The notes under the pieces: model-generated
Told to the model about the DNA's origin: nothing
What the model saw: only the letters and a program-made list of their open reading frames with translations
Databases searched by the model: none
Made by a program: the position numbers and the translations under genes
Part shown: piece after piece, positions 2,560 through 57,869 of the stretch
How the letters are laid out: the number at the start of each line of letters is the position of its first letter
Position numbering within the stretch: the first letter of the stretch is position 1
Source: Ignavibacteria bacterium
GTDB lineage: Bacteria > Bacteroidota > Ignavibacteria > Ch128b
DNA: 64,000 bases
NCBI GenBank assembly: GCA_026415235.1
Contig: JAOAHM010000062.1
Location: forward strand, 32,788-96,787
Reading direction: 5' to 3'

Positions 2560-5500
2560 ATGAAATTCTTCTTACTTCAAATTTCTTTTTGCTTTCTAAT
2601 TTCAATGAGTCTTTTAGTTGCTCAGACAAATTCAAGTAAACAAAATGAACATCAATCGGTTAAGAATTTAATCAATACTGTTGATAATAAATCATTAAGC
2701 ACAAAGTCATTTACAACAATTCAAGATTTCCAGAAAGGAGTAATAAAAAAGCTTGAAAAGATAAAAGCTCATAAAGATCGTAAGTACTACTTCATGAATG
2801 GAAATAAAATTAGCACTAATATCTACAATTATGGTGGTATTGCACCTGGCTATGGATTGCTTCGCAATGTGAATAATGTAGTCTGGCGTGGTGTTTCCTA
2901 TGTTTTTCAATTTTGTCCATTTGTAGCTGCTTCAGTTCCAAGTGGATATGATTCGACAAAAAGGTTACATATTGTTTCAGATGGATTATGGGATTATCCT
3001 AATTTAAGAGATGTAAGTCCTACGGGAGATACTCTTTGGGCATGGCAACCACTTCCTGGTTATGCTGACCCAAATCAAGAATTTATGGCTTCAAATCCTG
3101 CACCTGATAAAGATAATGATGGCAAACCAGATTCCTGGCCCAGAGAATGGTACAATCCAACTCTTGGAAAATATGTCTGGCCTGGTTACTTAGCTCAAGA
3201 TGCAACAAATGCAGACCTTGAAGTTTTCTGGGCAATGGACGATAGAGACAATTCTGAATTCCCTTACTGGCCCTTTGTAAAAGATTCAACAAGAAGAGGT
3301 TTAGGTGTTCAAGTAGATGGTAGAGCATTGCAATGGAGTAATGCTCTTGCAGAAAACACAATATTTTTTGTTTATACAATAGCAAATGTGAGTGACAAAA
3401 ACTTAGACTCAGTTTATTTTGGAATGTATGGTGACCCTGATGTTGGTGGTGGTTTACCCGCCGATCCAGGTGATGAAGTAAGAGATGATTTAGGTTTCTT
3501 TGTTGCACCACACAATTATTCTGTACCTGTTTATGCTCGAAGTATGATGTATTTGTGGGATAACGATGGCAAAGGTCATCTCGGTTTGCCAGTTGGATAT
3601 CTTGGTTGTAAATACCTGGAATCTCCTTCAAATCCTGGAAATAATTATGATGACGATGGTGATGGTTTAGTTGATGAAAAACAAGATGATGGAATTGATA
3701 ACGATAGAGATTGGAATCCACTTGTTGACGATGTTGGAATTGATGGAATTCCAAACACTGGTGATTTAGGTGAAGGTGATGGAGTGCCCACTCCGGGAAA
3801 AAGATTACCTGATGGCTCACTTGACCCACTTTATCCCGGTGAACCAAATTTCGAGTTAACTGACCTTGATGAATCAGATCAAATTGGTTTGACAAGCTTT
3901 AACAGTTGGACTTGGAATACAGATAAAGTTGCAAACGATGAATCGATGTGGTATCGAGTTCAAGCTGGTAATTTTAGTGATATTCGTCAACTTGAAGATA
4001 TTGTATTCATTTTTGGAAGTGGTCCAATTACTCTTTCAAAAGGCGAGATAAAAAGATTTTCAATGGCTTTACTTCTTGGTGAAAATTTAGATGATTTATT
4101 AACAACAGCAGAAACAGTTCAGAGAATTTACAACGCCAATTACAGATTTTTCCGTCCTCCGCTAAAACCAAATGTTGTTGCTGTTCCAGGTGATAGAAAG
4201 GTTACGCTTTATTGGGATTCAAGAGCAGAAGAGAGTATTGACCCAATTACAGGAAAGGATTTTGAAGGTTATGTCATTTATCGAAGTACAGATCCAACTT
4301 TTAATGATATTCAAACCATTACAGATGGTAAAGGAGCAAAATTTTTATATCAACCATTAAAAGATTTGCAAGGGAATGAATGCAGATGGGATGTTGATAA
4401 AAGACCTGAACCATTCAATGATAAAAATGGAAATCTAAAGTACGATGTTGGCGAAGAATATGTAGATATTAATGGAAATGGTCAGTGGGATCCAATCGCA
4501 CCTGATTATTGGAAAGGTTATCATCCTGTTCCTTATCAAGGTAGAGGTATTCAGTATTTCTTAGGGAACAATCGTGGATTGGTTCATTTTTATGTTGATT
4601 CAAATCAAGTAGTGAATGGTCAAACTTATTATTACGCAGTTGTGGCTTATGACCATGGAGACTCACTTGGAATACCACCAACTGAGACAACTAAGAAAAT
4701 CACTGTTGATCCTATTACAAACCAACTTCAATTCGATGTTAATACAGTTATGGTTATACCAGGACCACGAGCAAGTGGATATGTTGTAACTCCAACAAGC
4801 ACTAAGAGTTTAGTTCATGAAAGTGGAGTTGGAAATGGTGATGTAACATTGGAAGTAATTAACGATTTAATTGTAGAACAAAATTCAGAATTTAGATTAT
4901 TTTTTAGAGATACTTTAATTAGTGGTAATAGAAAAATTCCAGGCAAAAATTATTCTGTTTTGAAATTAACTCCAGTGATTGATAAAAACATCAGTTTTTA
5001 TGATACAAACTTCACAAAACTATCTTATCAAAACATAAGTGATGATAACTTTTTTGTTGTAAAAGATGAAAACGGAAATACTTATACAAAAAATATTGAC
5101 TATGTCGTTAACTTCGAAAGGGGAATAATTCGAAGAACTTCAACAAGCTCAATGGCAGTTAACAAAAAATATTCAGTTCAATATAGATACTATCCAATAT
5201 TTCAAAGTCAATTATTAAAAGGTGAAGATGGTAATCCTGTTTTTGATGGATTGAAACTAAAAATTGTTGATAATCCAGTTCTAAAAATTGACTCAATCAA
5301 AACAAACTGGATAAAAGGTAAGTGCAACTATACATTCAGAGTTGATAGAGCATCAATAGGTGGACGTATCATTCCAAATGAAGCCGATTACGAAATTCAT
5401 TTTTCTAATACATTTATCGACTCTGCAATGGTTTTGGTCTCAGGAAGATTAGTCAAAGTTCCTGTAAAGTATTCAGTAAAAGATGTAACTACTGGAGTTC

Positions 5501-6099
5501 CAAGAAATATTCTAACTTACTTAAAAGAAAATGCTCTCACCCGTGACTCAAATTACACTGCTGGTGAAGAAATTGTTTTCTTCAAACCTGGTTCAACTGG
5601 AAGAACAACTGATACAACAACATGGGGAGTAATTTTCTATGAACCAGCGGGAAAAACTCCAATTCCACCTTCAGCTGGAGATGTTTTCTACATCAGAACA
5701 TTAAGACCATTCAAACCTGCCGATGTATTTTATTTCAAAACAGAAGCATCAAAATTTGATGCAAACTTAGCAAAGTCAAGACTTGACGAAATAATCGTTG
5801 TTCCAAATCCTTATGTTGTTGTAAATGATATAGAACCAACGAATAAACTACCTGGACAAAATCGAGGTGAAAGAAGAATTTATTTTGAAAATCTTCCACC
5901 AGAATGTACTATAAGAATTTTCACTCTCGCAGGTGAACTTGTTCAAGTAATTCACCATTCTTCACAACTGGATAATGGAAGAGAGTTTTGGAATTTGTTG
6001 AACAGAGATGGATTTAGTGTTGCTTATGGAATTTATTTCGCTCACATCGAAGCTCCAGGAATTGGAGAGAAACTCTTAAAATTTGCAATTATTAAGTAA
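2560..6099 (+). CDS. Large secreted multidomain protein (cassette 1, gene B): DxDxDG-type acidic loops, FN3-like domain, T9SS-CTD-like C-terminus; family not recognised
   Basis: GAGGAG RBS lies 9 nt upstream of the ATG. Signal peptide MKFFLLQISFCFLISMSLLVAQ. Acidic loops include DKDNDGKPDSWP and DDDGDGLVDEKQDDGIDNDRDWNPLVDDVGIDGIPNTGDLGEGDG. FN3-like block VTLYWDSRAEE...GYVIYRS...NGQTYYYAVVAYD. Tail is VVPNPYVV...CTIRIFTLAGELV...GIYFAHIEAPGIGEKLLKFAIIK. It starts 21 nt after gene A. Confidence 0.75.
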   Translation: MKFFLLQISFCFLISMSLLVAQTNSSKQNEHQSVKNLINTVDNKSLSTKSFTTIQDFQKGVIKKLEKIKAHKDRKYYFMNGNKISTNIYNYGGIAPGYGLLRNVNNVVWRGVSYVFQFCPFVAASVPSGYDSTKRLHIVSDGLWDYPNLRDVSPTGDTLWAWQPLPGYADPNQEFMASNPAPDKDNDGKPDSWPREWYNPTLGKYVWPGYLAQDATNADLEVFWAMDDRDNSEFPYWPFVKDSTRRGLGVQVDGRALQWSNALAENTIFFVYTIANVSDKNLDSVYFGMYGDPDVGGGLPADPGDEVRDDLGFFVAPHNYSVPVYARSMMYLWDNDGKGHLGLPVGYLGCKYLESPSNPGNNYDDDGDGLVDEKQDDGIDNDRDWNPLVDDVGIDGIPNTGDLGEGDGVPTPGKRLPDGSLDPLYPGEPNFELTDLDESDQIGLTSFNSWTWNTDKVANDESMWYRVQAGNFSDIRQLEDIVFIFGSGPITLSKGEIKRFSMALLLGENLDDLLTTAETVQRIYNANYRFFRPPLKPNVVAVPGDRKVTLYWDSRAEESIDPITGKDFEGYVIYRSTDPTFNDIQTITDGKGAKFLYQPLKDLQGNECRWDVDKRPEPFNDKNGNLKYDVGEEYVDINGNGQWDPIAPDYWKGYHPVPYQGRGIQYFLGNNRGLVHFYVDSNQVVNGQTYYYAVVAYDHGDSLGIPPTETTKKITVDPITNQLQFDVNTVMVIPGPRASGYVVTPTSTKSLVHESGVGNGDVTLEVINDLIVEQNSEFRLFFRDTLISGNRKIPGKNYSVLKLTPVIDKNISFYDTNFTKLSYQNISDDNFFVVKDENGNTYTKNIDYVVNFERGIIRRTSTSSMAVNKKYSVQYRYYPIFQSQLLKGEDGNPVFDGLKLKIVDNPVLKIDSIKTNWIKGKCNYTFRVDRASIGGRIIPNEADYEIHFSNTFIDSAMVLVSGRLVKVPVKYSVKDVTTGVPRNILTYLKENALTRDSNYTAGEEIVFFKPGSTGRTTDTTTWGVIFYEPAGKTPIPPSAGDVFYIRTLRPFKPADVFYFKTEASKFDANLAKSRLDEIIVVPNPYVVVNDIEPTNKLPGQNRGERRIYFENLPPECTIRIFTLAGELVQVIHHSSQLDNGREFWNLLNRDGFSVAYGIYFAHIEAPGIGEKLLKFAIIK

Positions 6100-6121: not shown

Positions 6122-7144
6122 ATGAAGAAAATTATAATCTTAATTCCATTGATATTTTTAATTTTAATTTGCCATGCATTCTCGCAAATTGGTGCAAGCT
6201 TAACTAAAACAGGAACAACAGCAGCGCAATTTTTGAAAATTGGAATAGGTTCGAGAGCATTAGGAATGGGTGGTGCCTTTGTTGCATCATCCAACGATGT
6301 TTCGGCGATTTATTGGAATCCTGCTGGAATTGCTTTAATTGAAAATCGTGAAGCTGCTTTTAATCATGTTGATTGGTTGATGGATGTTAGTTTTGATCAT
6401 GCATCTTTTGCGATGAATTTCGGTGATTTTGGAACAGTAGGCGCTTTCGTTGGAGTGATGTCCATGGGCGAAATGTTAGTTCGAACTGTTGAAAAACCTG
6501 AAGGTACTGGTGAATACTTTGGTGCTGGTGCAATGACAATTGGATTATCTTATGCAAGAAACTTGACGCAAGATTTTGCTATTGGATTTAATGCAAAATA
6601 CATTCGTGAATTCATCTGGCATGAAATTGCCCAAGGTTTTGCTTTAGATATTGGAACGCTTTATAGATTACAATTTCTAAACGAAACAAGACTTGCTGCA
6701 AGTATTTCAAATTTTGGTACAAAGATGAAACTTTCAGGAAGAGATTTACTTGTTCTAACAAATACAGGTCCTGGTGGTGCAAATATTATTAATACGGAAC
6801 ATCAAGTTGATGAATATGATTTGCCTTTGTTGTTCAGAATTGGTGTTGCAGTTGATGCAATTAAATCGGAACAAATGCGTCTAACCATCGAAACTAACGC
6901 AATTCATCCAAATGATAATACAGAATATTTGAACACAGGTTTTGAATATGCATGGAATGAAAAAATTTTCATTAGAGCTGGCTACAAATCTTTATTCGAA
7001 AGAGATTCTGAACAAGGTTTGACTTGGGGATTGGGTTTAAATTATCGTCTTGTTGATTTTGTTAATCTTAAGTTCGATTATGCTTACCAAGATTTTGGTA
7101 GATTGAAAAATGTGCATTATTTGACTTTAGGAGTAAACTTCTGA
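6122..7144 (+). CDS. PorV/PorQ-family (FadL-like) outer-membrane beta-barrel (cassette 1, gene C)
   Basis: AAGGAG RBS precedes ATG 6122; the track ORF starts at an in-frame upstream TTG at 6083. Signal peptide MKKIIILIPLIFLILICHAFSQ. Motif GSRALGMGGAFVASSNDVSAIYWNPAG is characteristic of PorV/PorQ-type barrels. C-terminus is ...YLTLGVNF. Confidence 0.7.
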   Translation: MKKIIILIPLIFLILICHAFSQIGASLTKTGTTAAQFLKIGIGSRALGMGGAFVASSNDVSAIYWNPAGIALIENREAAFNHVDWLMDVSFDHASFAMNFGDFGTVGAFVGVMSMGEMLVRTVEKPEGTGEYFGAGAMTIGLSYARNLTQDFAIGFNAKYIREFIWHEIAQGFALDIGTLYRLQFLNETRLAASISNFGTKMKLSGRDLLVLTNTGPGGANIINTEHQVDEYDLPLLFRIGVAVDAIKSEQMRLTIETNAIHPNDNTEYLNTGFEYAWNEKIFIRAGYKSLFERDSEQGLTWGLGLNYRLVDFVNLKFDYAYQDFGRLKNVHYLTLGVNF

Positions 7145-7327: not shown

Positions 7328-7411
7328 GCCGAAGTGGCGGAATTGGCAGACGCGCATGATTCAGGGTCATGTGGGAGTAATCCCGTAGGGGTTCGAGTCC
7401 CCTCTTCGGCA
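7328..7411 (+). tRNA. tRNA-Leu (anticodon CAG), type II with long variable arm
   Basis: Manual fold. Acceptor GCCGAAG/CTTCGGC. Anticodon stem CATGA/TCATG with loop TTCAGGG. Variable arm GGGA-GTAA-TCCC. T arm GGGG-TTCGAGT-CCCC. Discriminator is A and no CCA is encoded. Confidence 0.9.
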
Positions 7412-7427
7412 CTAAATCTAATCTACA

Positions 7428-32320: not shown

Positions 32321-32321
32321 A

Positions 32322-33143: not shown

Positions 33144-33625
33144 GTAATCGTTACTTCTTGCCTGTTTTTGTTCTCTCTGTTCTTTTGATTTTACAACTTA
33201 CATTGGTTGAATTAATTTCATATGAGAATTTCAAACCTGATTTATTGCTAATAGGTTTAATCTACTACACATTAAAATTTGGTCAGATTGAAGGAATTGT
33301 TTCGGCTTTTGTATTTGGACTTTTGTTTGATTTATTAAGTAATGGAGTGATTGGTGCAAGTTCAATTTCAAAAGTTATTGCAACCTTCATTGCTGGATAT
33401 TTTGCTGATACAGAAAATAATCGAGTAGAAATTTCTACAAATCTATTTGCAATTATTTTCTTTGTTGCTTTGGTTGAAAGGATTACATACATTTTAGTAG
33501 CCGTCAATTTAGATTTCAAATCTTTGTTAATTGTTTTAGTACAATTTGGTTTAATACCAGCAGCTGTAACTTTGGTTTTCAGTTTATTTATTTTACTTAT
33601 GCCTCGTGAAACTGAGTTAAGGTGA
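33140..33625 (+). CDS. mreD: Rod-shape-determining protein MreD
   Basis: ATGA overlap with mreC. A small polytopic membrane protein in the canonical position. Confidence 0.7.
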   Translation: MSNRYFLPVFVLSVLLILQLTLVELISYENFKPDLLLIGLIYYTLKFGQIEGIVSAFVFGLLFDLLSNGVIGASSISKVIATFIAGYFADTENNRVEISTNLFAIIFFVALVERITYILVAVNLDFKSLLIVLVQFGLIPAAVTLVFSLFILLMPRETELR

Positions 33626-35412
33626 ATAAGATGAGAGAACTTTCTCCAAGATTAAGAACGACAATTATTTCTATCTTAAATGTAGCGATTTTTATTTCAC
33701 TTGGATTCAGACTTTATCAAATTCAAATTATTGAAACCGAGAAGTATCAAAAGACTTCAGAAAAAAATGCGATTAAAGAAAAAATAATCGAACCATATCG
33801 AGGAATTTTTTATGATAGAAATTGGAAAGTTTTAGTTGACAATGAGCCAGGTTTTACTCTTAGAATCACACCATACTATTTCGATACTTCACTTATTCCA
33901 ATAATTGAAAATTATTTTAAGTTAAAACCAGGTTATATTCGTTATCTACTTCGAGTAAATAAATCTTTCTCTCCATTCATTCCAATAAGAGTACAAAGAG
34001 GATTAACATTTGAGCAAATAAGTTGGTTAGAAGAGAACAAAGAATTTCTTCAAGGAGTTGATTATACCGTTGATATGCAAAGGTCATATCCATCTGGTGT
34101 AAGAGGTTCTCACTTGTTTGGATATTGTAAAGAAATTTCACGAAAGGAATTAGAACAGAAACGAGATTATTACATAATGGGCGATTTCATCGGTCATAAC
34201 GGTTTAGAAAAATATTATGAAGAATATTTAAGAGGAATAAAGGGGAAACAATTTGTTTATGTTGATGCAAAAGGTAGAGAAGTTGGTCCTGTTAATGAAG
34301 GTAAAAATGATATCAAACCTGTTTCTGGTTATAATGCACAACTAACTATTGATGCTGAATTACAAAAGTTAGCAGAAGAATTATTAGAAGGTAAAAGTGG
34401 AGCAATTGTAGCAATTGATCCTAACAATGGTGAAATCTTAACCTTTGTTAGCAAACCTGATTTTGACTTATCAAATTTTGCAAGTATGACTCCAGCTTCA
34501 GTTTGGCGTGAATTAAATTCAGATAAACGAGTACCTTTATTCAATAGAGCGACAATGTCAATTTATCCTCCTGGTTCTTGCTTTAAACCAGTCAATGGTA
34601 TCGCAGCTTTGAATGATGGTCTAATTGATGAGAAATATACCTATGGTTGTGGGGGAGGATTCTCGTTTGGTAATCATTTTTATAAATGTATGGGTACTCA
34701 TGGTGGAATTAATGTAGTCCATGCAATTGAAAAATCTTGCAACACATTCTTCTTCAGTTTAATACTTAAAAATGGATTTGAAAGATGGACAAAATATGGA
34801 AGAATGTTTGGATTTGGTCAAAAAACTGGAATTGATATTTATGAAGAAACCTCAGGCATTCTACCATCAGTTGAGTATTACAATAAAATTTATGGTGTTA
34901 ATCGTTGGACTAAAGGTTATATAGTTAGCTTAGGTGTTGGTCAAGGTGAGCTTGGAGTTACACCATTGCAAATGGCAGTCTATACTGCAACAATTGCGAA
35001 TGGTGGGACTTGGTATCGTCCTCATGCTGTAAGAAAGTTGTTTAATCCAGAAGCAAATCCAAAAGAAATTATCATCCCAATCGAAGGCAAAAAACTTCCA
35101 ATCAAAAGAGAAGCTATGGAATTGATAAGAACAGGTATGTACTTAGTTGTTAATGGAGCGGGAACAGCAACTCATGTTAGAATTCCAGGAATCAATGTAG
35201 CTGGTAAAACTGGAACAGCTCAAAATCCACATGGCAAAGACCATGCTTGGTTTATTGGCTTTGCACCTTTTGAAAATCCAAAGATTGCAATAGCAGTAAT
35301 TGTTGAAAATGCAGGATTTGGTGGTGCAGTAGCTGCACCTATTGCAAAACAATTAATCGAATTCTACTTAAAAGATGAAATTCAAAATAAAAAAGTTTTG
35401 GCTTCAAACTGA
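33622..35412 (+). CDS. mrdA: Penicillin-binding protein 2 (elongasome transpeptidase)
   Basis: SxxK (SCFK), SxN (SCN) and KTG (KTGTA). GTGA overlap with mreD. Confidence 0.9.
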
Positions 35413-36652
35413 TTTAAAGTCTGAAAGCGTTGAGGGAAAAATAACAGATAAACTTGATGTTTATCTATTTGCTTCATCACTACTAATAGTGATAATAGGA
35501 CTTCTTTCGATTTATAGTTCTACATTAAATATCTCAACACTTCATGTTAATTTTTATAAGCAACTCACTTTTGCAATCATTGGTTTATTCGTTGGATTAA
35601 TTATCTATTACCTTCCATTAAAAATTTTCAACTTGGTTGCATTCCCATTTTACATTTTTTCGATTGTTCTTCTTGTGTTGGTTTTATTTTTAGGGAAAAA
35701 AGTTTCTGGAAATCAAGCTTGGATTAATATTGGTTTCTTTTCACTCCAACCATCAGAAATTTCAAAGTTTGCAGTGATATTAGCGTTATCTAATATTTAT
35801 GCACGAAGAAATTTTAATATCAACAGCGTCAAAGGTTTTTTAATAGTAACAAGTTTGGTTCTCTTACCAACTGCATTGATTGTTTTACAAAAAGATATTG
35901 GCACTGCTTTAGTTTTCTTTTCTATATTAATCTTTGGATTGTTTTGGAATGGACTTTCTGGTTTTTCAGTATTCGTATTAATTAGTCCTATCATCGTTGG
36001 TATTTCGTCAATCTTAGGAATAATTCCACTTATAATTTCATTGGTTTTTGTAATAGCAGGATTGTTTTATTTCAAGAGAGAATTGTTTCTATCAATTGGG
36101 ATATTAGCACTTAATATTTCAGCAGCAGTTTTAGTTGAATTATCATTTCATATCCTTTCACCGCATCAGATTAATCGGATAAAAAATTTTCTCGACCCAA
36201 ACTTTGACCCACTTGGGAGCGGATATAACGCACTTCAAGCAAAAGTTGCAATTGGCTCTGGTGGATTATTTGGTAAAGGATTTCTTGCTGGAAGTCAAAC
36301 TCAATTAAAATTTATTCCTGCTCAATGGACAGATTTTATTTTTTGTGTAGTTGGTGAGGAATTTGGATTTGTTGGGGCAATTTTTGTTCTGTTGTTGTAC
36401 TTCATTGTGATTTCAAGATTACTTTACATTGCCAAGTCTACAGACTCAATCTTTCGAAGCAGCGTAGTAATTATGACAGTTTCCGTTTTATTAACACATA
36501 TTTTTATCAATGTTGGGATGACAATTGGTTTAGTTCCAGTAATAGGTATTCCTTTACCACTTATGAGTTATGGTGGAAGTGCTCTCGTGACTAATATGAG
36601 CATGATTGCAACTGCCTTAAACTTTTATCGTCATCGAACTTCTTTAGCTTGA
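35375..36652 (+). CDS. rodA: SEDS-family peptidoglycan polymerase RodA
   Basis: [25 protein letters not shown] and PLMSYGGSA. The ATG overlaps mrdA by 38 nt, and there is no alternative start in frame. Confidence 0.9.
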
Positions 36653-36718: not shown

Positions 36719-39562
36719 ATGCTAAACAAATACTTCTTTTCCTTCCTTACATTAGTTCTAATGGTATCCTATTTAATTGCAGGGAATACTGGCAAAATTG
36801 CTGGTAAAGTAATTGATAAAGAAACAAAAGAACCGATTCCATTTGCTAATGTAATCGTTGAAGGAACTCAACTTGGTGCTGCTACAAATCTTAATGGGGA
36901 GTTTGTTATTCTAAATGTTCCACCAGGAGTTTACACAGTAACAGCATCAGTTGTTGGTTATCAGAAAAAATCAATTACTGATGTTCGAGTTAATGTTGAT
37001 TTTACAACAAGACTCGAATTTCAATTAACTCAAGGCTCTATTGACTTACCACCTGTTATTGTTCAAGGTGAGAGAAATCCTTTAATCCGACAAGACCTCA
37101 CAAATCCTGTAGCTTCAATTACAAGTGATAAGATTGACGAATTGCCAGTGGATCAAATTGCCGATGTAATTAAGCTCCAAGCTGGTGTTGTTGTAGGTAA
37201 TGATGGTGATATTCATATCCGTGGTGGATATGGAAATGAAATCGCTTACACATTAAATGGAATTACATTAAATGACCCTTACGGTAACCGTAGGTCTGTT
37301 GGACTTGCAACAAATGCAGTTCAAGAAGTTTCTGTTTCAAGTGGAACTTTTAGTGCTGAATATGGAAATGCTCTTAGTGGTGTAGTTAATTATGTAACCA
37401 AAGAAGGTCCATCGAAATATACTGGAAGTATTAAAGCATATTCTGGTGATTATCTCACAAGTAGAAAAGATTTGTTTGAGAATATTGATGAGGTAAATCC
37501 ATTAAACAGAGCGAGAACTGAGTTTACATTTGGCGGACCTTTGCCTTTATTGTTTAGCAAAAGTGTTAACTTTTTCATTTCATCTGTTTATGAAGACTTC
37601 AAAGGTTCACTTTATGGAAAAAGAATTTATCGTCCTACTGATTCTTACTTAGAACGAAATAACTTCCGCTCTGGTGACCCAAGAAGTGGTAAATCTACTG
37701 ATCCATATTTCTTCAATCCTTACTCGAAAGATAGCTCTGGATTACCCACTGGTGATGGTGCGTGGGTTCCAATGAATTGGTCAAGGTCTTTCAATTTTCA
37801 AGGTAACTTGATTATAAAACCGCTTCCAACCATCAAATTCAAATATGAATATGTTTATGAAAAAGGTTCATCACAAGATTATGACAGGTCATACAAGTAT
37901 AATCCTGACGGAAGACCTACGAACTATTCTAATGGTTATATTCATGCATTTGATTGGACACATACAGTTTCAAACAACTTATTCTACACATTGAAGATGT
38001 CCTATTCGGATAATTATGCAAAAACATATTTGTATGAAAATCCTTTTGATGAAAGATATCTACCTTCCCTTTATGCAAGGTCATTGGGTAATACAACATT
38101 CTTGACTGGAGGAACAGATAACTCAAGATTTTACAGAAGAACACAAACCTTAGGTGTGAAAGGTGACTTAGTTGCACAATTGTTTGATGTTCATGAAATT
38201 AAAATGGGATTTGAAATTCGTAAACATAGATTGAATGTAGAAAGTTACACCGTTCAAGTTGGTTATATTAATCAACAAGGTTTATTTACAACATTAACTC
38301 CAGCAACTTTACTTTATGACTCAGTTCAATTAGTAAGAAGAATTCCAAACGACACTTCTCTTTATACAAGTTATGAGCGATTACCTTTACAAGCAGCTGC
38401 TTACATTCAAGATAAAATTGAGTTAGCTTCTTCAATGATTTTAAATGTTGGTGTACGATATGAGTTTTTCAATCCAGCTGCTCAATACAATCCTTTTGTT
38501 AGCAAAGATTTGAGTGAATTAAAAGCAGGTTCAATTACAAAAAGCGCAGTTGATGCAAAACCAAAGCATAGATTGAGTCCAAGAGTTAGTGTCTCTTACC
38601 CAATTACCGATAGAGGTGTAATTAGATTTTCCTACGGACATTTTTATCAGATACCATCGTTGGCAAGCCTTTATCGAAATCCATTCTATTATGTTGCGAA
38701 CTTTGGAGAGAATCCAACTTTTGGAAATCCAAATGTAGAACCACAAAAAAGCGTTCAGTATGAGTTAGGATTACAACAACTTTTATTGGATGATTTGAAA
38801 CTCGAAGTGACAGGATTTTATAAAGATGTAAGTAATTACATTTATACTCAACAGATTTTCACAAATGAAGGGCGAGCATTTTATCTTTTAACAAATCTTG
38901 CGTATTCGAGTAGTAAGGGAATAACAGTCTCGCTACTTAAGCGCAGGTCACCACAAGATTTCTTCTCTGCATCTTTAGATTATACTTTTTCACTTGCTGA
39001 AGGTAATAGAACCTATCCAGCCGATGAAATTTTCTTTAGCGAAAAAAGTGGAAAACAAAGTGAAACATATCTTGTACCATTTAGCTTTGATAGAAGTCAT
39101 GTGATTAATGCAACATTAACATTTACAAAACCAAACAATTGGATTGCATCTTTTGTCGGTTATTTCCAGACAGGTACACCATACACACCAGTTTTTCCTT
39201 CGAACATAGTTGACATTACTTTTGAACAGAACTCTGCTCGTCAACCAATTCAATGGAATGTTGATTTTAAGTTCGAAAAATTCTTTATGCTCGGAAATTT
39301 GAAATTGTCTTTATTCGCTCAAATAGAAAATTTGTTTGATACTCAAAACGAACTTTATGTGTATGCTTCAACAGGAAGAGCGTTAAGTGCAATTGAAGAA
39401 AAAGATATTTCAATTGTGTTCTCCGATATGTTACGAAGAATTAATCGAGGTGATGCTGGATTAATTCCAAAGAAGGAAATCGAGCGCTATTACTCACTTC
39501 GACCTGAAAGGGTCAATAGACCAAGAGAAGTCCGATTAGGATTTCAAATAATTTTTAACTGA
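36719..39562 (+). CDS. TonB-dependent-receptor-like outer-membrane protein with N-terminal carboxypeptidase-regulatory-like domain (cassette 2, gene A)
   Basis: Signal peptide. The block GKIAGKVIDKETKEPIPFANVIVEGTQLGAATNLNGEFVILNVPPGVYTVTASVVGY is CarboxypepD_reg-like. Plug-like block IHIRGGYGNEIAYTLNGITLNDPY and a long barrel follow. The C-terminus is ...PREVRLGFQIIFN. Confidence 0.85.
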   Translation: MLNKYFFSFLTLVLMVSYLIAGNTGKIAGKVIDKETKEPIPFANVIVEGTQLGAATNLNGEFVILNVPPGVYTVTASVVGYQKKSITDVRVNVDFTTRLEFQLTQGSIDLPPVIVQGERNPLIRQDLTNPVASITSDKIDELPVDQIADVIKLQAGVVVGNDGDIHIRGGYGNEIAYTLNGITLNDPYGNRRSVGLATNAVQEVSVSSGTFSAEYGNALSGVVNYVTKEGPSKYTGSIKAYSGDYLTSRKDLFENIDEVNPLNRARTEFTFGGPLPLLFSKSVNFFISSVYEDFKGSLYGKRIYRPTDSYLERNNFRSGDPRSGKSTDPYFFNPYSKDSSGLPTGDGAWVPMNWSRSFNFQGNLIIKPLPTIKFKYEYVYEKGSSQDYDRSYKYNPDGRPTNYSNGYIHAFDWTHTVSNNLFYTLKMSYSDNYAKTYLYENPFDERYLPSLYARSLGNTTFLTGGTDNSRFYRRTQTLGVKGDLVAQLFDVHEIKMGFEIRKHRLNVESYTVQVGYINQQGLFTTLTPATLLYDSVQLVRRIPNDTSLYTSYERLPLQAAAYIQDKIELASSMILNVGVRYEFFNPAAQYNPFVSKDLSELKAGSITKSAVDAKPKHRLSPRVSVSYPITDRGVIRFSYGHFYQIPSLASLYRNPFYYVANFGENPTFGNPNVEPQKSVQYELGLQQLLLDDLKLEVTGFYKDVSNYIYTQQIFTNEGRAFYLLTNLAYSSSKGITVSLLKRRSPQDFFSASLDYTFSLAEGNRTYPADEIFFSEKSGKQSETYLVPFSFDRSHVINATLTFTKPNNWIASFVGYFQTGTPYTPVFPSNIVDITFEQNSARQPIQWNVDFKFEKFFMLGNLKLSLFAQIENLFDTQNELYVYASTGRALSAIEEKDISIVFSDMLRRINRGDAGLIPKKEIERYYSLRPERVNRPREVRLGFQIIFN

Positions 39563-39579
39563 ATTTCTTGAGGAGAAGA

Positions 39580-42500
39580 ATGATGAGAAAGAAAATTTTC
39601 ATTTCATTCATTCTGGTTCTAATTCTTGCAATCAATTTAATTGCACAGAAAAAAGATCAGTATGGAAATTACATCTTAAAAGAATTAACAGAAAAACAAG
39701 CCCTGGAACTTTTTGGAAAACCAGGTGAGCGATTAGCTAAAGCTCTTGGCAATCCTAAGATTATTAAAGAAAGTATAATTCAAGGAAATAAAGTAAAGAC
39801 CGTTCTCTTCAATTACGGCTCAATTTGTGCACCAAATTATCTTGGAAATATTGCAGACCTCGTGTGGAATGGATTGGGATACGGTTTCGAATTTGGTCCT
39901 CTTGCTGCAGCAGAAGTTGTTAACGATCGTGGCGATACACTACACATTGTTGATGATTCATTTATTAGAACTTTTCAAGGTGATTACAATCCAGCAGGAA
40001 CATTGAAATGGGGTTGGTTACCAAAAGATGGATATGTTGACCCAAATCAGAATGAAATTGCAAGACTAAATTCTCCCGATAAAAATGGTGATGGTAAACC
40101 AGATAGCTGGCCTGAAAACTGGTATAATCCAGGTGCTGGAAAATATCTCTGGCCTGCTTTCTTAGGTGATCAAGCAACTGCTCCTGATGAAGAAGTTTAT
40201 TTTGTGATTGATGATTTTACAAATGCTGAATTTCCATACTATCCATTTCCAAATGATTCTTCTAAACGTGGACTTGGACTTGACATGGAAGTTCGTGTGC
40301 TTCAATTTAACAATCCACTTGCTGAAGATATCATCTTCTTAGTCTATCAAACTACTAATGTAAGTCCAAAAACCTTACCGAGAGTTTATTTTGGTATGCA
40401 TGGTGACCCGCATGTTGGTGGACCAAGTAATTACAACGATGATAGAGCTTATTTTATTCCACCGTTAGGACCATTAGCTGATCCATATCCACAAAGAGCA
40501 CGAAGCATGGTTTATGCTTGGGATGATGATATGAAAGGTGATGGAGGTAAATGGTGCGGATACTTCGGTTGGAAATTTTTAGAAAGTCCAAGTCAACATA
40601 CAGATGTAAAAGATAACGATGATGATGGTATCACAGACGAAAGTCCATTCAACGATGCAGGTTTTTTCATTGATGGTGTTGTTTATCCACTAACTTATGG
40701 AATATCGAATTTAACAAAGTACACAGAAGTTTATGGTGCACCAAAGCCAAGATGGTCTGGTGACGAAGATGGCGATTGGGATCCTTCAATTCATGATATT
40801 GGAATTGATGGAATTGGTCCAGACTCTCCCAATTATCCTGGTCCTGATTATGGTGAAGGTGATGGCAAACCAACTCAAGCTTGGTACATCGATCTTAACA
40901 ACAACAATAAATATGATGTTGGAGAACCACTTTCAGAAACAAGATTACCAGGTTACAAATGGGCAGGCTCTGAACCACACTTTGGTTTAAGAGATATTTC
41001 AGAATCAGATCAACTTGGTTTAACAAGTTTCCACGCAGCAGTTTACACTAACTCACTTCCAAATGTCCCAATGAATGACGAGTTGATGTGGGAATGGTTA
41101 TCGAGTGAGACAATTGATCCTAATCAAGAATTACTTAATCAACCAGGTGACAATGTATTTAATTTTGGAACTGGACCATTCAAACTCGAACCTGGTGAAA
41201 CACAAAGATTTTCGATGTGTATTTTGTTTGGTGAAAATCTTAATGATTTGGTATTAAATGCAGAAATTTCTACTCGTATTCTTGAAGCAGATTATCGCTT
41301 TGCACAACCACCAGCAAAACCAATTGTTTATGCAGTTCCTGGTGATGGAAGAGTTACACTTTATTGGGATACAAGAGCAGAAAATTCAGTTGACCCATTG
41401 ACTTTAAGTAAAGATTTCCAAGGTTATAAAATTTATCGAAGTCAAGATCCTAAATTTTCTGATGTATTTAAGATAACAGATGGAAATGGTGTTCCTTATC
41501 TTGGTGTTCCTTTGTTTGACCCAAACACTGGTAAATATGCACAATTCGATTTAGTTGATTCGTTGAAAGGATTTCATCCAGTTGAGTATGCTGGTAGAGG
41601 TATAAAATATTGGATAGGTAATAATACTGGATTAGTTCATGAGTATGTGGATTCAACCGTTAAGAATGGAATAACTTATTACTATGCAGTAGTTTCCTAC
41701 GATGGTGGTTCATTAGTTCCAGGAAAAGAACTTCCTCCATCTGAATGTCCAATGGTTATTTCACAAGATCCAATCACTGGCGAATTAAAATTTGATGTTA
41801 ATACCGTAATGGTTGTACCTGGACCACGTGCAAAAGGTACATTAACTGATTTAAATAAAAATATTAATGTTGAACACCTTAATGGAATTGCAACTGGAAG
41901 AATTTTTGTTAAGACTTATGATAGCAAAGCTGTGAAAGATAACAATGTTTACATTGTTGAATTCACAACGAATACTAAGTTTAATGTTTTGAATGAAACA
42001 GGTGTAACCGATAAAATAATATCAAAAGATACTGTTCTCGTAAATCTTTCAAATCAGAATATCTTACCAGGAAGTGTTATTGTCAAAGACGAAGCTGGTA
42101 ATATTGTTCCATCAAATAAATACATAGTTAATACTATTTCAGGAAAAATCAGAAGTGCAAACTCTGGAGATTTACCTGCTGGAAAAGAATATTCTGTTTA
42201 TTACAAGTATTATCCTGTTTATCAAAGCAGCAACATAAAAGGTGAAGATACAAATCCAATTTTTGATGGAATGCGAATTTTCTTGTACAACGATACTCTT
42301 GGAATTGATCGGAAGAATTCTGGTTGGGCACCTGGAAAGAAAACGAATTTAAGAGATACAATTATTTGGGTACCAAGAACCGTTTCTCCTGCAAATCCAC
42401 ACCTACCAACCGACCTTGACTTTAAGATTGAATTTACAAGCATGGATACAACTTCTACAGGAAAATATTCTTCTCCTGGTGATACTGTTAATAACCAATC

Positions 42501-43140
42501 AAATCAAAGAACCGTTTGTCCATTTAGAATTACTATTGCAACTCAAGACTCAATGCTGGGCAGAAAAGCTGATTATATAATTTTTGAAGGAATTGCTGCA
42601 ACTCGAGGTAATGGTCGTTGGGATCCAGGTGAAGATATTATTTTCTTCCCAAGAGTAAGAGAAAGACTAAGAACTTCATATCAAATTACATTTTCTTTAC
42701 CTTCGGGCACATTCATCCCACCGCAAGGTGATGTTTATTATTTAAAGACGACAAAACCATTCAAAGCTGGAGAGAAATATTCTTTCAAGACAATTGGCGA
42801 AAAGTATGATAAAGAACTTGCTAAGAGTCAGCTTGAAAATATTTATGTAGTTCCAAATCCTTATGTCGCATATTCCGATGCTGAGCAACCAGCTCGTCAA
42901 CCAAATAGAAGAGGTGATAAGGTTATTCAGTTTAGAAATCTACCGAAAGAATGTACAATTAGAATTTATACTATTGCTGGTGAACTTGTTCAAACACTTT
43001 ATAAAAATGATGATGGTAGTATCATCAGTTGGGATTTATTAAGCTACGAAGGACAAAGAATTGCTTACGGTGTTTACATTTATCATGTTGATGCACCTGG
43101 AATAGGTGAGAAGATTGGTCGATTCGCAGTTATAAAATAA
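39580..43140 (+). CDS. Large secreted multidomain protein (cassette 2, gene B), paralog of 2560..6099
   Basis: GAGGAG RBS, with ATG at 39580 or 39583; the track uses TTG 39568. Signal peptide ...LILAINLIAQ. The blocks are collinear with the paralog: DKNGDGKPDSWP, VYFGMHGDPHVGG, DIGIDGIGPDSPNYPGPDYGEGDG, VTLYWDTRAEN...GYKIYRS...GITYYYAVVSYD, and the tail VVPNPYVA...CTIRIYTIAGELV...GVYIYHVDAPGIGEKIGRFAVIK. Confidence 0.75.
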   Translation: MMRKKIFISFILVLILAINLIAQKKDQYGNYILKELTEKQALELFGKPGERLAKALGNPKIIKESIIQGNKVKTVLFNYGSICAPNYLGNIADLVWNGLGYGFEFGPLAAAEVVNDRGDTLHIVDDSFIRTFQGDYNPAGTLKWGWLPKDGYVDPNQNEIARLNSPDKNGDGKPDSWPENWYNPGAGKYLWPAFLGDQATAPDEEVYFVIDDFTNAEFPYYPFPNDSSKRGLGLDMEVRVLQFNNPLAEDIIFLVYQTTNVSPKTLPRVYFGMHGDPHVGGPSNYNDDRAYFIPPLGPLADPYPQRARSMVYAWDDDMKGDGGKWCGYFGWKFLESPSQHTDVKDNDDDGITDESPFNDAGFFIDGVVYPLTYGISNLTKYTEVYGAPKPRWSGDEDGDWDPSIHDIGIDGIGPDSPNYPGPDYGEGDGKPTQAWYIDLNNNNKYDVGEPLSETRLPGYKWAGSEPHFGLRDISESDQLGLTSFHAAVYTNSLPNVPMNDELMWEWLSSETIDPNQELLNQPGDNVFNFGTGPFKLEPGETQRFSMCILFGENLNDLVLNAEISTRILEADYRFAQPPAKPIVYAVPGDGRVTLYWDTRAENSVDPLTLSKDFQGYKIYRSQDPKFSDVFKITDGNGVPYLGVPLFDPNTGKYAQFDLVDSLKGFHPVEYAGRGIKYWIGNNTGLVHEYVDSTVKNGITYYYAVVSYDGGSLVPGKELPPSECPMVISQDPITGELKFDVNTVMVVPGPRAKGTLTDLNKNINVEHLNGIATGRIFVKTYDSKAVKDNNVYIVEFTTNTKFNVLNETGVTDKIISKDTVLVNLSNQNILPGSVIVKDEAGNIVPSNKYIVNTISGKIRSANSGDLPAGKEYSVYYKYYPVYQSSNIKGEDTNPIFDGMRIFLYNDTLGIDRKNSGWAPGKKTNLRDTIIWVPRTVSPANPHLPTDLDFKIEFTSMDTTSTGKYSSPGDTVNNQSNQRTVCPFRITIATQDSMLGRKADYIIFEGIAATRGNGRWDPGEDIIFFPRVRERLRTSYQITFSLPSGTFIPPQGDVYYLKTTKPFKAGEKYSFKTIGEKYDKELAKSQLENIYVVPNPYVAYSDAEQPARQPNRRGDKVIQFRNLPKECTIRIYTIAGELVQTLYKNDDGSIISWDLLSYEGQRIAYGVYIYHVDAPGIGEKIGRFAVIK

Positions 43141-43157
43141 AATTATGGAGTTTGAAA

Positions 43158-44189
43158 ATGAGAAAAATTATTATAATCTCAGCCATAACATTAATATTCG
43201 TTAATCTAAATCTTTTTGCTCAGCTTGAAAGAAGCACCTCGAAAGTTGGAACAACAGCAGCAACATTTTTGAAGATTAATGCTGGTGCTCGTGCGATTGG
43301 AATGGCAGGTGCATTTGCTGCAATGGAAAATGATATCTATTCTATTTATTACAATCCAGCTGGTATTTCAAGAATATCTGGGACAGGGGCTGCAGCTTTC
43401 AATCATGCTAATTGGCTTGCTGATATGTCTTATGATTTTGCTGCGCTTGCACTTAATCTTGGTGATATTGGAAGTATTGCATTGAGTTTAACTTCCTTTA
43501 GTGTCCCTGAAGAAAAGGTTCGCACTTTTGATAATCCCGAAGGTGATGGTAGATATTGGGATGCATCTTCATTATCCCTTGGTGTTTCTTATGCAAGAAA
43601 TTTGACTGATAATTTTTCGATTGGTTTTAATTTGAAATATATTCGTGATCAAGTTTGGGATATGAGCGCAAGTTCAATTGCAATTGATGCGGGTACAATG
43701 TACACAACACCATTCAATGGATTGAGGATTGGTGCGAGCATTTCAAACTTTGGTACTAAAATGAAATTGGAAGGAAGAAATACTTACATCAATGTTGACC
43801 CAAATAATAATCCAAATTCAGGTCCAAATAATATTCCTGCAGAATACCGATTAGCATATTATGATATTCCTCTTTCTTTCAGAGTTGGTTTAGCGATGGA
43901 AGTTGTTAAAAGCCAATTAGTAACAATCACTACTTCTCTTGACGCTGTTCATCCCAATGATAATACAGAATATCTTAATCTTGGTTTGGAGTTTAATTTT
44001 AATAATAATTTTTATGCAAGAGGTGGTTATAAATCTTTATTCTTAAGAGATAGTGAACAAAGCTGGACATTTGGCTTTGGTTTGAATTATCCTATAATAA
44101 ACGATATTGGTCTATCGCTGAATTATGGTTTTGCTGATTATGGTAGATTGAAAAATGTTCAGTTCTTCGATTTAGTAGTAAATTTCTAA
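43158..44189 (+). CDS. PorV/PorQ-family outer-membrane beta-barrel (cassette 2, gene C), paralog of 6122..7144
   Basis: TGGAG RBS lies 7 nt before ATG 43158. There is a signal peptide ending ...NLNLFAQ. Motifs GARAIGMAGAFAAMENDIYSIYYNPAG and HPNDNTEYLN are shared with the paralog. The C-terminus is ...FFDLVVNF. Confidence 0.7.
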   Translation: MRKIIIISAITLIFVNLNLFAQLERSTSKVGTTAATFLKINAGARAIGMAGAFAAMENDIYSIYYNPAGISRISGTGAAAFNHANWLADMSYDFAALALNLGDIGSIALSLTSFSVPEEKVRTFDNPEGDGRYWDASSLSLGVSYARNLTDNFSIGFNLKYIRDQVWDMSASSIAIDAGTMYTTPFNGLRIGASISNFGTKMKLEGRNTYINVDPNNNPNSGPNNIPAEYRLAYYDIPLSFRVGLAMEVVKSQLVTITTSLDAVHPNDNTEYLNLGLEFNFNNNFYARGGYKSLFLRDSEQSWTFGFGLNYPIINDIGLSLNYGFADYGRLKNVQFFDLVVNF

Positions 44190-44198
44190 GGTGTGTTG

Positions 44199-44954
44199 AT
44201 GGCAGTCAAATCGAAAGAACTTGCTTCTGATTTGACTGCCGATTTTATTTTAAAGGTCAATAATATTCTATTAAAAAAATTTGGTAAACCTCCTCGTAAC
44301 TTCAACTCAAATCCACTTGATATTTTAGTCGCTACAATACTTTCTCAAAATACAAACGATTTAAATTCTCATAAAGCATTCGTTAATCTAAAAAATGAAT
44401 TTCAAAATTATGATGAATTAATCGAAGCTGATTTAAGACAAATAGAAAAATTAATCAGAATAGCAGGACTTGGTAAACAAAAAGCGAGAACAATTAAAAA
44501 ATTTCTTATATCTCTTAAAAAGAAAAACAAAAAGTTAGACCTTGATTTTTTAAAGAATTATTCAATTGACGAGGCACTTGATTTTTTAGTTAAACATGAT
44601 GGAATAGGAATAAAAACAGCTGCTTGTGTACTTTTGTTTGGTTTGAATAAAAATGTGTGTCCAGTTGATACGCATGTTCATCGAGTGATAAATAGACTTG
44701 GAATAGTTAAAACAAAAAATCGTGATAAAACTTTTGAAGAATTAAAAAAACATTTACCAAATGGTATCGCACATGAGTTTCATACGAATTTAATTAAACT
44801 TGGTCGGATAATTTGCCTTAGTCAAAATCCAAAATGTTATGAATGTCCACTTAAAAAACTTTGCTTATATGAACATAAAAACTTAGAAAAGCCTAAAATG
44901 AAAAACAAAGCTCCAACTAAGAATTCTGACTTTATGTTATTAGACTCTGTTTGA
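44199..44954 (+). CDS. Endonuclease III-family HhH-GPD DNA glycosylase with Fe-S cluster loop
   Basis: ILVATILSQNTND, the helix-hairpin-helix GIGIKTAACVLLFG, the catalytic region VDTHVHRV and CLSQNPKCYECPLKKLC. ATG 44199 lies 9 nt after the PorV-like gene stop. Confidence 0.75.
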   Translation: MAVKSKELASDLTADFILKVNNILLKKFGKPPRNFNSNPLDILVATILSQNTNDLNSHKAFVNLKNEFQNYDELIEADLRQIEKLIRIAGLGKQKARTIKKFLISLKKKNKKLDLDFLKNYSIDEALDFLVKHDGIGIKTAACVLLFGLNKNVCPVDTHVHRVINRLGIVKTKNRDKTFEELKKHLPNGIAHEFHTNLIKLGRIICLSQNPKCYECPLKKLCLYEHKNLEKPKMKNKAPTKNSDFMLLDSV

Positions 44955-45084: not shown

Positions 45085-45122
45085 AAAAAATTTAAAATAA
45101 ATAACCCCACCGAAGTGGGGTT
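45085..45122 (-). terminator. Rho-independent terminator of the cold-shock gene
   Basis: On the minus strand, stem AACCCCAC-TTCG-GTGGGGTT is followed by a T-rich run. Confidence 0.8.
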
Positions 45123-45641: not shown

Positions 45642-46076
45642 ATGGATAAAACTATCATTGATAAAATTATTAATCTTGTAGGCGAGCAAGTTGCACTCAA
45701 AGCAGTTTGCAATATTTCCGATAAAGGACCTATCGACGAAAAATTACACGCAGCTAAAATTGATAGAGCCAGATGGTTTGGATTAATTGAAAAAGATTCT
45801 TTAGCTCTCACAGAAATGGGAAAAATTTTCGCTTGTAAACTCTTTTTTGACTATGCAGAGAATGCATTTGAAGGAAATGAAACAGATGAAGATGATGAGA
45901 ATGAAAAAGAAAATGCAGAAAACGAAGATTGGGACGACGAGTTAGATGAATTAGAAGATTTAGATGATGAATTTAATGACGATGATTACGGTCTTGATGA
46001 TTGGGATGAAGATGATTGGGATGATGAAGATGATGATGATTTTAAACCAAATAAAGGCCCACGTAGAAGAAAATAA
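45642..46076 (+). CDS. Small protein with an extremely acidic W/D/E-rich C-terminal tail ending in a basic KGPRRRK; unknown function
   Basis: The ORF has a GAAAGGAAAA purine-rich stretch upstream and its own terminator. The tail reads ETDEDDENEKENAENEDWDDELDELEDLDDEFNDDDYGLDDWDEDDWDDEDDDDFKPNKGPRRRK. Confidence 0.55.
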   Translation: MDKTIIDKIINLVGEQVALKAVCNISDKGPIDEKLHAAKIDRARWFGLIEKDSLALTEMGKIFACKLFFDYAENAFEGNETDEDDENEKENAENEDWDDELDELEDLDDEFNDDDYGLDDWDEDDWDDEDDDDFKPNKGPRRRK

Positions 46077-57759: not shown

Positions 57760-57869
57760 AAGAAAATAAGAATTAATTTTGATTGTTAATTAATTGAGAT
57801 AGGGTGATTTTAGGTTAGGTCTTTAGTTAGTTCTTTATAAAATTTTTTGAAATAAAATTGGGAGGTACA

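Follow-up and report, generated by a model that had tools for sequence, protein, structure and literature searches.

The closest described relatives of the proteins discussed here belong to type IX secretion. PorU and PorZ are type IX proteins whose C-terminal tails stay uncleaved; the tail of PorU remains bound to PorV and that of PorZ to PorQ, and cognate PorV-like barrels have been proposed as tail protectors (PMC10202324). Barrels of the FadL/PorV type also have precedents as platforms beside a larger barrel, in SprA-PorV and BamA-BamG (PMC12578637). Type IX systems have been reported as possibly present in Ignavibacteriota (PMC11285876). Here we describe a trio of genes in a stretch of 64,000 nt (hereafter the window) from an Ignavibacteria bacterium, contig JAOAHM010000062.1 of assembly GCA_026415235.1. 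From the map of open reading frames (ORFs), the window carries two co-linear three-gene sets on the plus strand, cassettes 1 and 2, each encoding a TonB-dependent transporter (A), a large secreted surface protein (B) and a PorV/PorQ-family outer-membrane barrel (C). Our favored reading, which we hold at even confidence, is that each cassette specifies a three-part outer-membrane machine for nutrient capture and import, resembling SusCD in its working. The features of the two cassettes are as follows (aa, amino acids; FN3, fibronectin type III; Ig, immunoglobulin).

36719..39562, plus strand: A2, a 947-aa TonB-dependent transporter comprising a signal peptide, a CarboxypepD_reg N-terminal extension, the TonB-box-like LPPVIVQG, a plug and a barrel
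39580..43140, plus strand: B2, secreted surface protein, 1186 aa, with a type I signal peptide without lipobox
39751..41307, plus strand: B2 N-terminal domain, predicted beta-supersandwich with inserted acidic loops of the Ca-binding type (DxDxDG)
41320..41712, plus strand: B2 FN3-like domain, PPAKPIVYAVPGDGRVTLYWD...YKIYRS, with an insertion inside and a Foldseek match to fibronectin type III arrays
41818..42717, plus strand: B2 Ig-like beta-sandwich region, its least conserved part and a probable stalk or spacer
42820..43140, plus strand: B2 C-terminal domain, type IX secretion tail of the PorZ/PorU kind, ending ...GRFAVIK
43158..44189, plus strand: C2, PorV/PorQ-family outer-membrane barrel, 343 aa
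1..2538, plus strand: A1, paralogous TonB-dependent transporter, its 5' end outside the window and about 70 aa missing
2560..6099, plus strand: B1, paralogous surface protein, 1179 aa, with the domain order and the kind of C-terminal tail of B2
6122..7144, plus strand: C1, paralogous PorV/PorQ-family barrel, 340 aa, in an ORF that opens at TTG 6083

Two of the start sites required a choice. The ORF of B2 (39568-43140) opens with TTG at 39568, and ATG 39580, which has a GAGGAG ribosome-binding site ahead of it, is preferred as the probable start of a protein of 1186 aa. The ORF of C2 (43152-44189) likewise opens with TTG, at 43152, and probably starts at ATG 43158, giving 343 aa. From the first base of the window up to 2538, the A1 frame is uninterrupted; its ortholog in a close relative (L081) has 916 aa, including a CarboxypepD_reg extension, indicating that some 70 aa are absent here.

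Paralogy, synteny and distribution of the trio

BLASTP aligns A1 with A2 at 40% identity over 882 columns (E = 0), B1 with B2 at 40% over 1261 columns (E = 0) and C1 with C2 at 47% (E = 1e-111); over aligned columns in MAFFT the identities are 44%, 45.5% and 49%, respectively. A preliminary description of this DNA, made by eye, had called the aligned blocks roughly half identical, which is fair though slightly high in view of the computed 40-47% (BLASTP) and 44-49% (MAFFT). It had given gene order and sizes correctly (947/1186/343 aa against a cut A1, 1179 and 340 aa), and the motif blocks that it quoted for A, B and C are found in both cassettes. Its uniform spacing of 17 nt holds for both gaps of cassette 2; those of cassette 1 measure 21 and 22 nt. 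We also agree that there is no DNA-level repeat between cassettes 1 and 2 and that they are old paralogs kept as intact three-gene units, B1 and B2 each having an ortholog group of its own, with 57-91% identity across Ignavibacteria. One metagenome-assembled genome holds both types. Since each type has its own ortholog group in Ignavibacteria, the duplication predates the radiation of the class. At 80 of 80 cassette-2-type loci, the A and C proteins resemble those of cassette 2 more closely than those of cassette 1, and over 118 triads the correlation between the distance matrices (A, C and the parts of B) is r = 0.88-0.95. These comparisons support the conclusion that A, B and C duplicated and were inherited as a set. 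The two window cassettes presumably serve different substrates.

To follow the trio beyond the window, 165 loci were fetched, gene order was checked at the testable sites, and flanking ORFs were analyzed over 161 loci. A scan of one genome per species returned at least 584 loci, of which the best 80 were examined. All of these best 80 are labelled Ignavibacteria or Melioribacteraceae, a few odd bin labels aside, and A and C flank B in every one of them. The preliminary description had argued that the three products function together, a view against which independent occurrence of the homologs in other genomes would speak. Of the B loci that could be tested, 134 of 135 have A and 135 of 137 have C. 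The misses comprise one frameshifted B, one small inserted ORF and a single true stand-alone B, L146, so that the homologs keep together with one real exception. This exception (L146:726-4016), the sole B relative without A and C, is also the weakest-scoring, at 425 bits; a partial tail-bearing protein precedes it and opposite-strand genes follow.

A profile search of 1.84 billion cluster representatives revealed 8,706 B relatives (50%-identity clusters) at E <= 0.001, 1,237 of them at E <= 1e-30. The named ones come from Marinimicrobia, Fidelibacterota, KSB1, Delongbacteria, Zhuqueibacterota and the 'FCB group', and all are annotated 'hypothetical protein'; similarly, each of 1276 homologs of B2 is named 'hypothetical'. 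The order A-B-C appears again at 80 metagenome loci that are 32-41% identical to a Marinimicrobia member, and Pfam labels confirmed it in gene-called contigs of KSB1, Marinimicrobia, Delongbacteria and a lineage with a larger B. Tandem A-B-C-A-B-C arrays are recurrent, which indicates that the unit duplicates as a whole. Triads of the Ignavibacteria type were also seen on bins labelled Syntrophomonadaceae, Acidobacteriota, Paceibacterota and Methanosarcinaceae (L038, L052, L057; P0494), most likely through binning errors in public metagenome-assembled genomes. Among the listed hits, a precomputed match to PF27730.1 stands on P0202, P0251 and at least one further B relative; PF27730 may be a recent family built on protein B.

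Properties of the three proteins

C2 and C1 reach 205.7 and 232.5 bits on the PorV_fam model (NF033709, cut-off 90), placing both in this family. A profile built from 44 family members of C found F. johnsoniae PorV in the PDB (6h3i_F, E = 6.4e-23) and nothing else significant. Both proteins fall below the equivalog cut-offs for PorV (NF033710, 83-88 bits against 250), PorQ (NF033711, 82-91 against 220) and PorV2 (NF052325, 72-85 against 325). Judged by these profiles, C is a separate subfamily, roughly equidistant from PorV and PorQ. A BamG-type role for C was considered and rejected, the BamG model giving 20 bits (E = 2e-4) against a cut-off of 250.

The tail of B is of an unusual kind. On NCBIfam models, the last 116 aa of B2 match the PorZ tail (9.7e-8) and the PorU tail (2.9e-5) and score 20.6 bits on TIGR04183, against a cut-off of 23; the tail of B1 matches PorZ (2.9e-5) and scores 13.5 bits on TIGR04183, against the same cut-off. 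Ordinary cargo in the window shows the opposite pattern. A 949-aa protein at 57858-60707, which combines BNR repeats with a canonical Por_Secre_tail (E = 8e-9), has a tail that matches TIGR04183 at 7e-11, PorU at 3e-3 and PorZ not at all. The canonical tail of this protein indicates that the organism makes ordinary type IX cargo. When a profile of the whole B family was compared with the PDB, the sole sequence match was the PorZ tail in 5m11, and PorZ was the top Foldseek hit for the model of B2. To judge from these matches, the PorZ/PorU-like tail, which the preliminary description had not noted, is what links B to the PorV-like gene. As a tail of this kind is followed 17 nt downstream by the gene of a PorV/PorQ-family barrel, B and C are best read as a cognate pair.

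A1 and A2 are TonB-dependent transporters, with 45 bits for Plug (cut-off 23.9) and 97-103 bits for the TonB_dep_Rec barrel (cut-off 27). The Pfam matches of A2 are CarbopepD_reg_2 (5.8e-21), Plug (1.8e-11), the TonB_dep_Rec barrel (2.5e-27) and OMP_b-brl_4 (1.1e-20). Between the N-terminal extension and the plug, 24 family members share a stretch L-x-x-V-V-V-x-A-E-R-P, which is TonB-box-like by position. Neither protein is a member of the SusC/RagA family as modelled by TIGR04056 (65 bits for A2 and 37 bits for A1 against a cut-off of 368, with the N-terminal part alone matching), and the neighboring gene B is not SusD-like, as the gene next to a SusC should be. A profile of the A family against the PDB returned generic TonB-dependent receptors only. 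Matches were also considered as a guide to the substrate class of A and set aside as uninformative, its PDB and NCBIfam relatives being generic (haem, colicin I and enterobactin receptors).

No Pfam family was found in B. The AlphaFold2 model of B2 has a predicted local distance difference test score (pLDDT) of 74, is nearly all-beta and consists, in order, of the type I signal peptide, a beta-supersandwich, an FN3-like domain, Ig-like sandwiches and a C-terminal sandwich. When the N-terminal domain was modelled alone (residues 62-580), pLDDT was 77 and the predicted template-modelling (TM) score 0.79. The insert in this domain is poorly ordered and rich in invariant acidic motifs of the DxDxDG type; invariant D and E columns are present in the family alignment. 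Foldseek matched the domain to the non-catalytic N-domains of glycoside hydrolase (GH) family GH94 phosphorylases, GH116 glucosidases and dextran dextrinase, and to the P1 domain of YidC, with probability 0.99-1.0, a TM score of about 0.3 and 6-10% identity. The predicted likeness to carbohydrate-associated domains is at the level of the fold, and nothing beyond. The columns of the FN3-like domain are highly conserved in family alignments. The Ig-like region is all-beta in the model at pLDDT 85-95 and gives adhesin-type Ig matches in Foldseek; the adhesins matched by B are Bap, SdrD and UafA.

Other identities for B find no match. It is not SusD-like, as its model is almost all-beta and its signal peptides (...LIA/QKK and ...LVA/QTN) have no lipobox cysteine. 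It does not have the body of PorU or PorZ either, with no C25 peptidase domain in Pfam and no propeller in the model, and family alignments contain no invariant Cys or His outside the tail. B as an enzyme was rejected, since no catalytic domain was found and the glycoside-hydrolase matches are limited to non-catalytic N-domains. A Reg_prop propeller is the kind of domain that PorZ has, and some larger B relatives (P0425, P0284, P0274 and others; 1350-1600 aa) carry an extra Reg_prop beta-propeller (PF07494). In the larger-B lineage (L164) the Reg_prop match is faint in the gene-called contig; propeller-bearing relatives still stand in A-B-C triads, in tandem. Predicted signal-peptide cleavage exposes an N-terminal Gln in all four secreted proteins of types B and C, at LIA/QKK in B2 (signal-peptide site at window 39580-39660), LFA/QLE in C2 (43158-43225), LVA/QTN in B1 (2560-2630) and AFS/QIG in C1 (6122-6190). 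An N-terminal glutamine after the signal peptide has been described as typical of Bacteroidetes (PMC5837995).

We compared the rates of nonsynonymous (dN) and synonymous (dS) substitution with the closest relatives, because between the paralogs, at 40% amino-acid identity, the ratio is meaningless. For A, B and C of both cassettes dN/dS is 0.03-0.08 (0.06-0.08 for B2), values that are approximate since dS exceeds 1 even for close orthologs; rodA gives 0.08-0.10 and the nth-like neighbor of cassette 2 gives 0.19-0.25. All three genes are under strong purifying selection. Within B, conservation among proteins of one type is 0.65-0.88 on the N-domain side (residues 51-750) and in the tail (1100-1190), and the N-terminal domain of B2 is the best-conserved part of the protein. 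Residues 751-1050 are lowest both within a type (0.35-0.59) and between types (0.22-0.38). The preliminary description had placed the most divergent stretch of the giant proteins in their middle third and had expected it to carry ligand specificity. The range it gave does overlap the variable stretch (B residues of about 750-1050, window 41818-42717), which is the third quarter and not the middle third. The link to specificity does not stand, because orthologs of one type, too, differ most in this region (conservation of 0.35-0.59, compared with 0.65-0.88 elsewhere). As it varies among same-type orthologs too, residues 751-1050 look like a relaxed spacer, most simply a stalk. Type-specific divergence of B is greatest in the N-domain and in the C-terminal tail, and B1 and B2 differ by additional indels at residues 334-393 and 633-659.

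Genomic surroundings in the window and elsewhere

The flanks of cassette 2 are as previously described, with the genes for MreB, MreC, MreD, PBP2 and RodA upstream and that for an HhH-GPD glycosylase 9 nt downstream. This elongasome operon (window 31295-36652) lies directly 5' of the cassette. Two features on the 3' side are relevant.

44199..44954, plus strand: endonuclease III-like (HhH-GPD) gene, Pfam HhH-GPD 1.3e-18, 9 nt past C2
45103..45122, no strand assigned: strong bidirectional GC-rich hairpin with T-runs on both strands, the first terminator-like site past cassette 2, after the nth-like gene

A promoter and terminator scan of cassette 2 gave counts at shuffle level, with the hairpin at 45103-45122 as the sole stand-out, and the terminator scan showed no convincing terminator between rodA and A2 or within the cassette. 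With these counts at shuffle level, we infer co-transcription of cassette 2 from its 17-nt gaps. Past the hairpin there is an ORF of 144 aa (45642-46076) with no Pfam match. Downstream of cassette 1 come tRNA-Leu(CAG), then two squalene/phytoene synthase genes and a gene for an amine-oxidase-type flavoprotein (window 7328-10413). The latter region resembles an HpnCDE-type squalene pathway, and its gene order is identical in the close relative L081.

The nth-like gene is found downstream of C in about 45 of the 80 Ignavibacteria loci (L001-L080), but in the distant lineages it is rare, its flank-gene cluster being present at only 2 of 80 loci. With dN/dS at about 0.2, this gene changes three to five times faster than the trio and is probably a conserved neighbor and not a member of the module.

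The preliminary description had likened the cassettes to polysaccharide utilization loci. For the window this does not apply, as its cassettes lie among housekeeping genes and no carbohydrate-active enzyme (CAZyme), regulator or SusD is encoded near either of them. The comparison is more apt for other genomes, where the flanks are rich in type IX-secreted hydrolases. Over the 161 loci, the flanks contain 560 ORFs of at least 300 aa; 139 of them, spread over 83 loci, have a type IX tail at their end. A protein with FG-GAP/VCBS repeats and a type IX tail is encoded directly 5' of A, on the same strand, in many near and distant lineages. It is the trio's commonest neighbor (about 600-660 aa, sometimes more than 1,200), with FG-GAP-like proteins present in 48 of the 161 loci (L081:4600-6456 on the minus strand, L033, L036-L047, L091, L094-L101 and others). 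In many genomes the unit may have four genes, this protein included. The other flanking tail-bearing proteins match Por_Secre_tail in 72 of 81 cases, and among their bodies are Amidase_2 (8), CBM9 (6), GH16 with malectin (5), GHL10 (4), GH18 (4) and peptidase M23 (4). Such flanks are what one would expect near a polymer-uptake system, and they partly support the comparison with polysaccharide utilization loci. No recurrent regulator was seen in the flanks of these loci.

At a KSB1 locus, genes for Amidase_2, NamZ and SLT-LysM proteins adjoin a tandem pair of triads. Peptidoglycan and amino-sugar genes recur by triads more widely, as tailed Amidase_2 and M23 proteins, NamZ, SLT-LysM, SLT_2 and GH18 (L162:14040-21402, L163:14611-15417 and the flanks of L091, L094, L095, L098, L100 and L101). 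Such neighbors, and in the window the elongasome operon just ahead of cassette 2, may hint at muropeptide or chitin-type substrates. A gene for a SurA-like rotamase of 560-580 aa adjoins the trio in two distant lineages (L164:18096-19826; L165:4122-5810).

Proposed working, alternatives and known systems

In the machine that we propose, B would enter the periplasm by its Sec signal peptide and then cross the outer membrane through the type IX system by means of its C-terminal domain. It would retain this tail, as PorZ and PorU do and unlike ordinary cargo. The tail would be bound to the cognate barrel C, and C, beside A, would serve as a non-covalent membrane anchor. The N-terminal beta-supersandwich, carried on the less constrained Ig-like stalk, would bind substrate at the surface and pass it to A, possibly also acting as a lid, and A would perform TonB-energized import. 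The substrate would probably be a glycan or another polymer fragment freed by type IX-secreted hydrolases. From the comparisons made here we infer that A, B and C form a physical complex and that B keeps its tail on C, and likewise which way transport runs and what substrate is taken up. Partial correlations over the 118 triads are 0.54 for A with the B N-domain, 0.43 for C with A, 0.31 for C with the B stalk, 0.19 for C with the tail and -0.04 for C with the B N-domain; these fit the proposed geometry in a way that is suggestive only.

Several points weigh against this proposal. The window cassettes have housekeeping genes around them and neither a hydrolase nor a regulator or sensor nearby. 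The very strong conservation of the trio and its near-universality in Ignavibacteria are compatible with a housekeeping envelope machine as well. The low dN/dS values are approximate for the reason given above. The tail of B2 scores just below the TIGR04183 cut-off, and a complete type IX system in this genome is deduced from cargo tails and the literature. Finally, the fold match of the B N-domain is generic, its TM score being about 0.3 and its identity 6-10%, and no binding site could be picked out in the domain.

The same evidence bears on other ways of reading the trio. The B-C pairs could be lineage-specific type IX machinery, counterparts of PorU-PorV and PorZ-PorQ that process, sort or anchor other cargo, with A as an accessory. 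Indeed, PorZ and PorU have the tails nearest to that of B, C is a PorV/PorQ-family barrel, and two ancient paralogous pairs per genome recall PorUV and PorZQ; the very strong gene conservation, the housekeeping context, the enrichment of type IX cargo in the flanks and the Reg_prop propeller of some B relatives point the same way. However, B has neither a C25 peptidase domain nor a conserved Cys/His pair in family alignments, and the window B proteins are without a propeller. A TonB-dependent transporter, none of which is known as a type IX component, is always present and tightly coupled, and thousands of 50%-identity clusters together with tandem arrays look like substrate diversification and not like one machine part. 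We consider this reading unlikely. An assignment of B as a structural or adhesive surface protein (surface layer, adhesin or envelope stabilizer), anchored by C and with A serving assembly or structure, appears improbable too. It draws on the FN3 and Ig-like domains with Ca-binding loops, the Foldseek matches to Bap, SdrD and UafA, the position beside the elongasome operon and the near-universality of the module in the class. Adhesins, though, are usually variable at the tip and not locked to a transporter, whereas the tip domain of B is its most conserved part and dN/dS is as low as in core genes; moreover, A retains a plug and a TonB-box-like motif, and the neighbors elsewhere are degradative enzymes.

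A could also be a TonB-powered channel for the export or assembly of B, after the manner of Oar and PopC in Myxococcus, with C receiving B at the surface. A has the exact architecture of Oar, a CarboxypepD_reg extension, plug and barrel, plus the OMP_b-brl_4 match (PMC6434023); it is always encoded directly upstream of B, and it co-varies most with the B N-domain. This architecture, however, is common to 28% of all TonB-dependent transporters, SusC included (PMC6434023). A known export route exists, given that the type IX tail of B is recognizable and that both the window and related loci abound in such cargo; a folded protein of 130 kDa also fits a 22-strand barrel poorly. We therefore give little credence to A as an exporter, and it is very improbable that we see here a secretion-and-anchoring pathway that works without the SprA translocon and is widespread across the FCB superphylum.

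If the capture-and-import reading is true, many bacteria outside the classical Bacteroidia, among them Ignavibacteria, Marinimicrobia (abundant in the dark ocean), KSB1 and Delongbacteria, build the surface partner of a TonB-dependent transporter in another way, as a type IX-secreted protein on its own PorV-like barrel and not as a SusD-like lipoprotein. Type IX secretion and TonB-dependent uptake, now studied apart, would be physically joined, and a very large family, annotated as hypothetical in every named member seen, would gain a function. Two cultured species, Melioribacter roseus and Ignavibacterium album, would allow a direct test of the hypothesis, and the window offers a clean case of a single genome holding the module in two ancient copies.

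A literature search found no published description of the A-B-C trio. What is new is the obligatory combination, its breadth and the missing annotation; every part is familiar, and the mechanism is our proposal. M. roseus has a separate SusCDE operon and Por-tailed CAZymes (PMC3534657), and because of this operon the trio would be an additional system and not a replacement for SusCDE. The likeness to SusC/SusD (RagA/RagB) lies in a TonB-dependent transporter with a CarboxypepD_reg extension that is co-encoded directly 5' of a large surface partner, in several paralogous sets per genome and in degradative enzymes that often adjoin in other genomes. The differences are substantial. B is all-beta, of about 1,180 aa, with a type I signal peptide and a type IX tail, whereas SusD is an alpha-helical lipoprotein of about 550 aa, like tetratricopeptide-repeat proteins; A reaches 65 bits against 368 on the SusC/RagA model; a PorV-like barrel is the obligatory third gene; and the window trio has no regulator or CAZyme nearby. 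Relative to both TbpA/TbpB and SusC/SusD, the trio would work alike, but with a secreted, barrel-anchored partner where theirs is a lipoprotein.

With PorU-PorV and PorZ-PorQ the trio has in common a large protein with a C-terminal secretion domain, which in B would be retained, and a PorV/PorQ-family barrel, the tail of B being nearest to theirs. The porU and porV genes are adjacent in P. gingivalis, as are those for B and C. It differs from them in that B is without the C25 peptidase of PorU, the window B proteins are without the propellers of PorZ, C stays under the equivalog cut-offs and a transporter gene is always attached. The pairing of type B tail proteins with PorP/SprF-like barrels (SprB/SprF) is similar in that a secreted surface protein is encoded beside its own anchoring barrel (PMC9143113, PMC10202324); the tail of B, however, is nearer to type A and PorZ than to the CHU_C type B, and C is of the PorV/PorQ and not the PorP/SprF family. 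BamG is, like C, related to FadL, a 14-strand barrel packed on a larger barrel as a platform for extracellular proteins (PMC12578637), but it binds BamA and lipoproteins, and C scores 20 bits against 250 on its model. Oar of Myxococcus xanthus has a domain architecture identical to that of A (PMC6434023), but is tied to protein export, with no PorV-like or tail-bearing partner described, whereas in the trio the transporter stands together with both.

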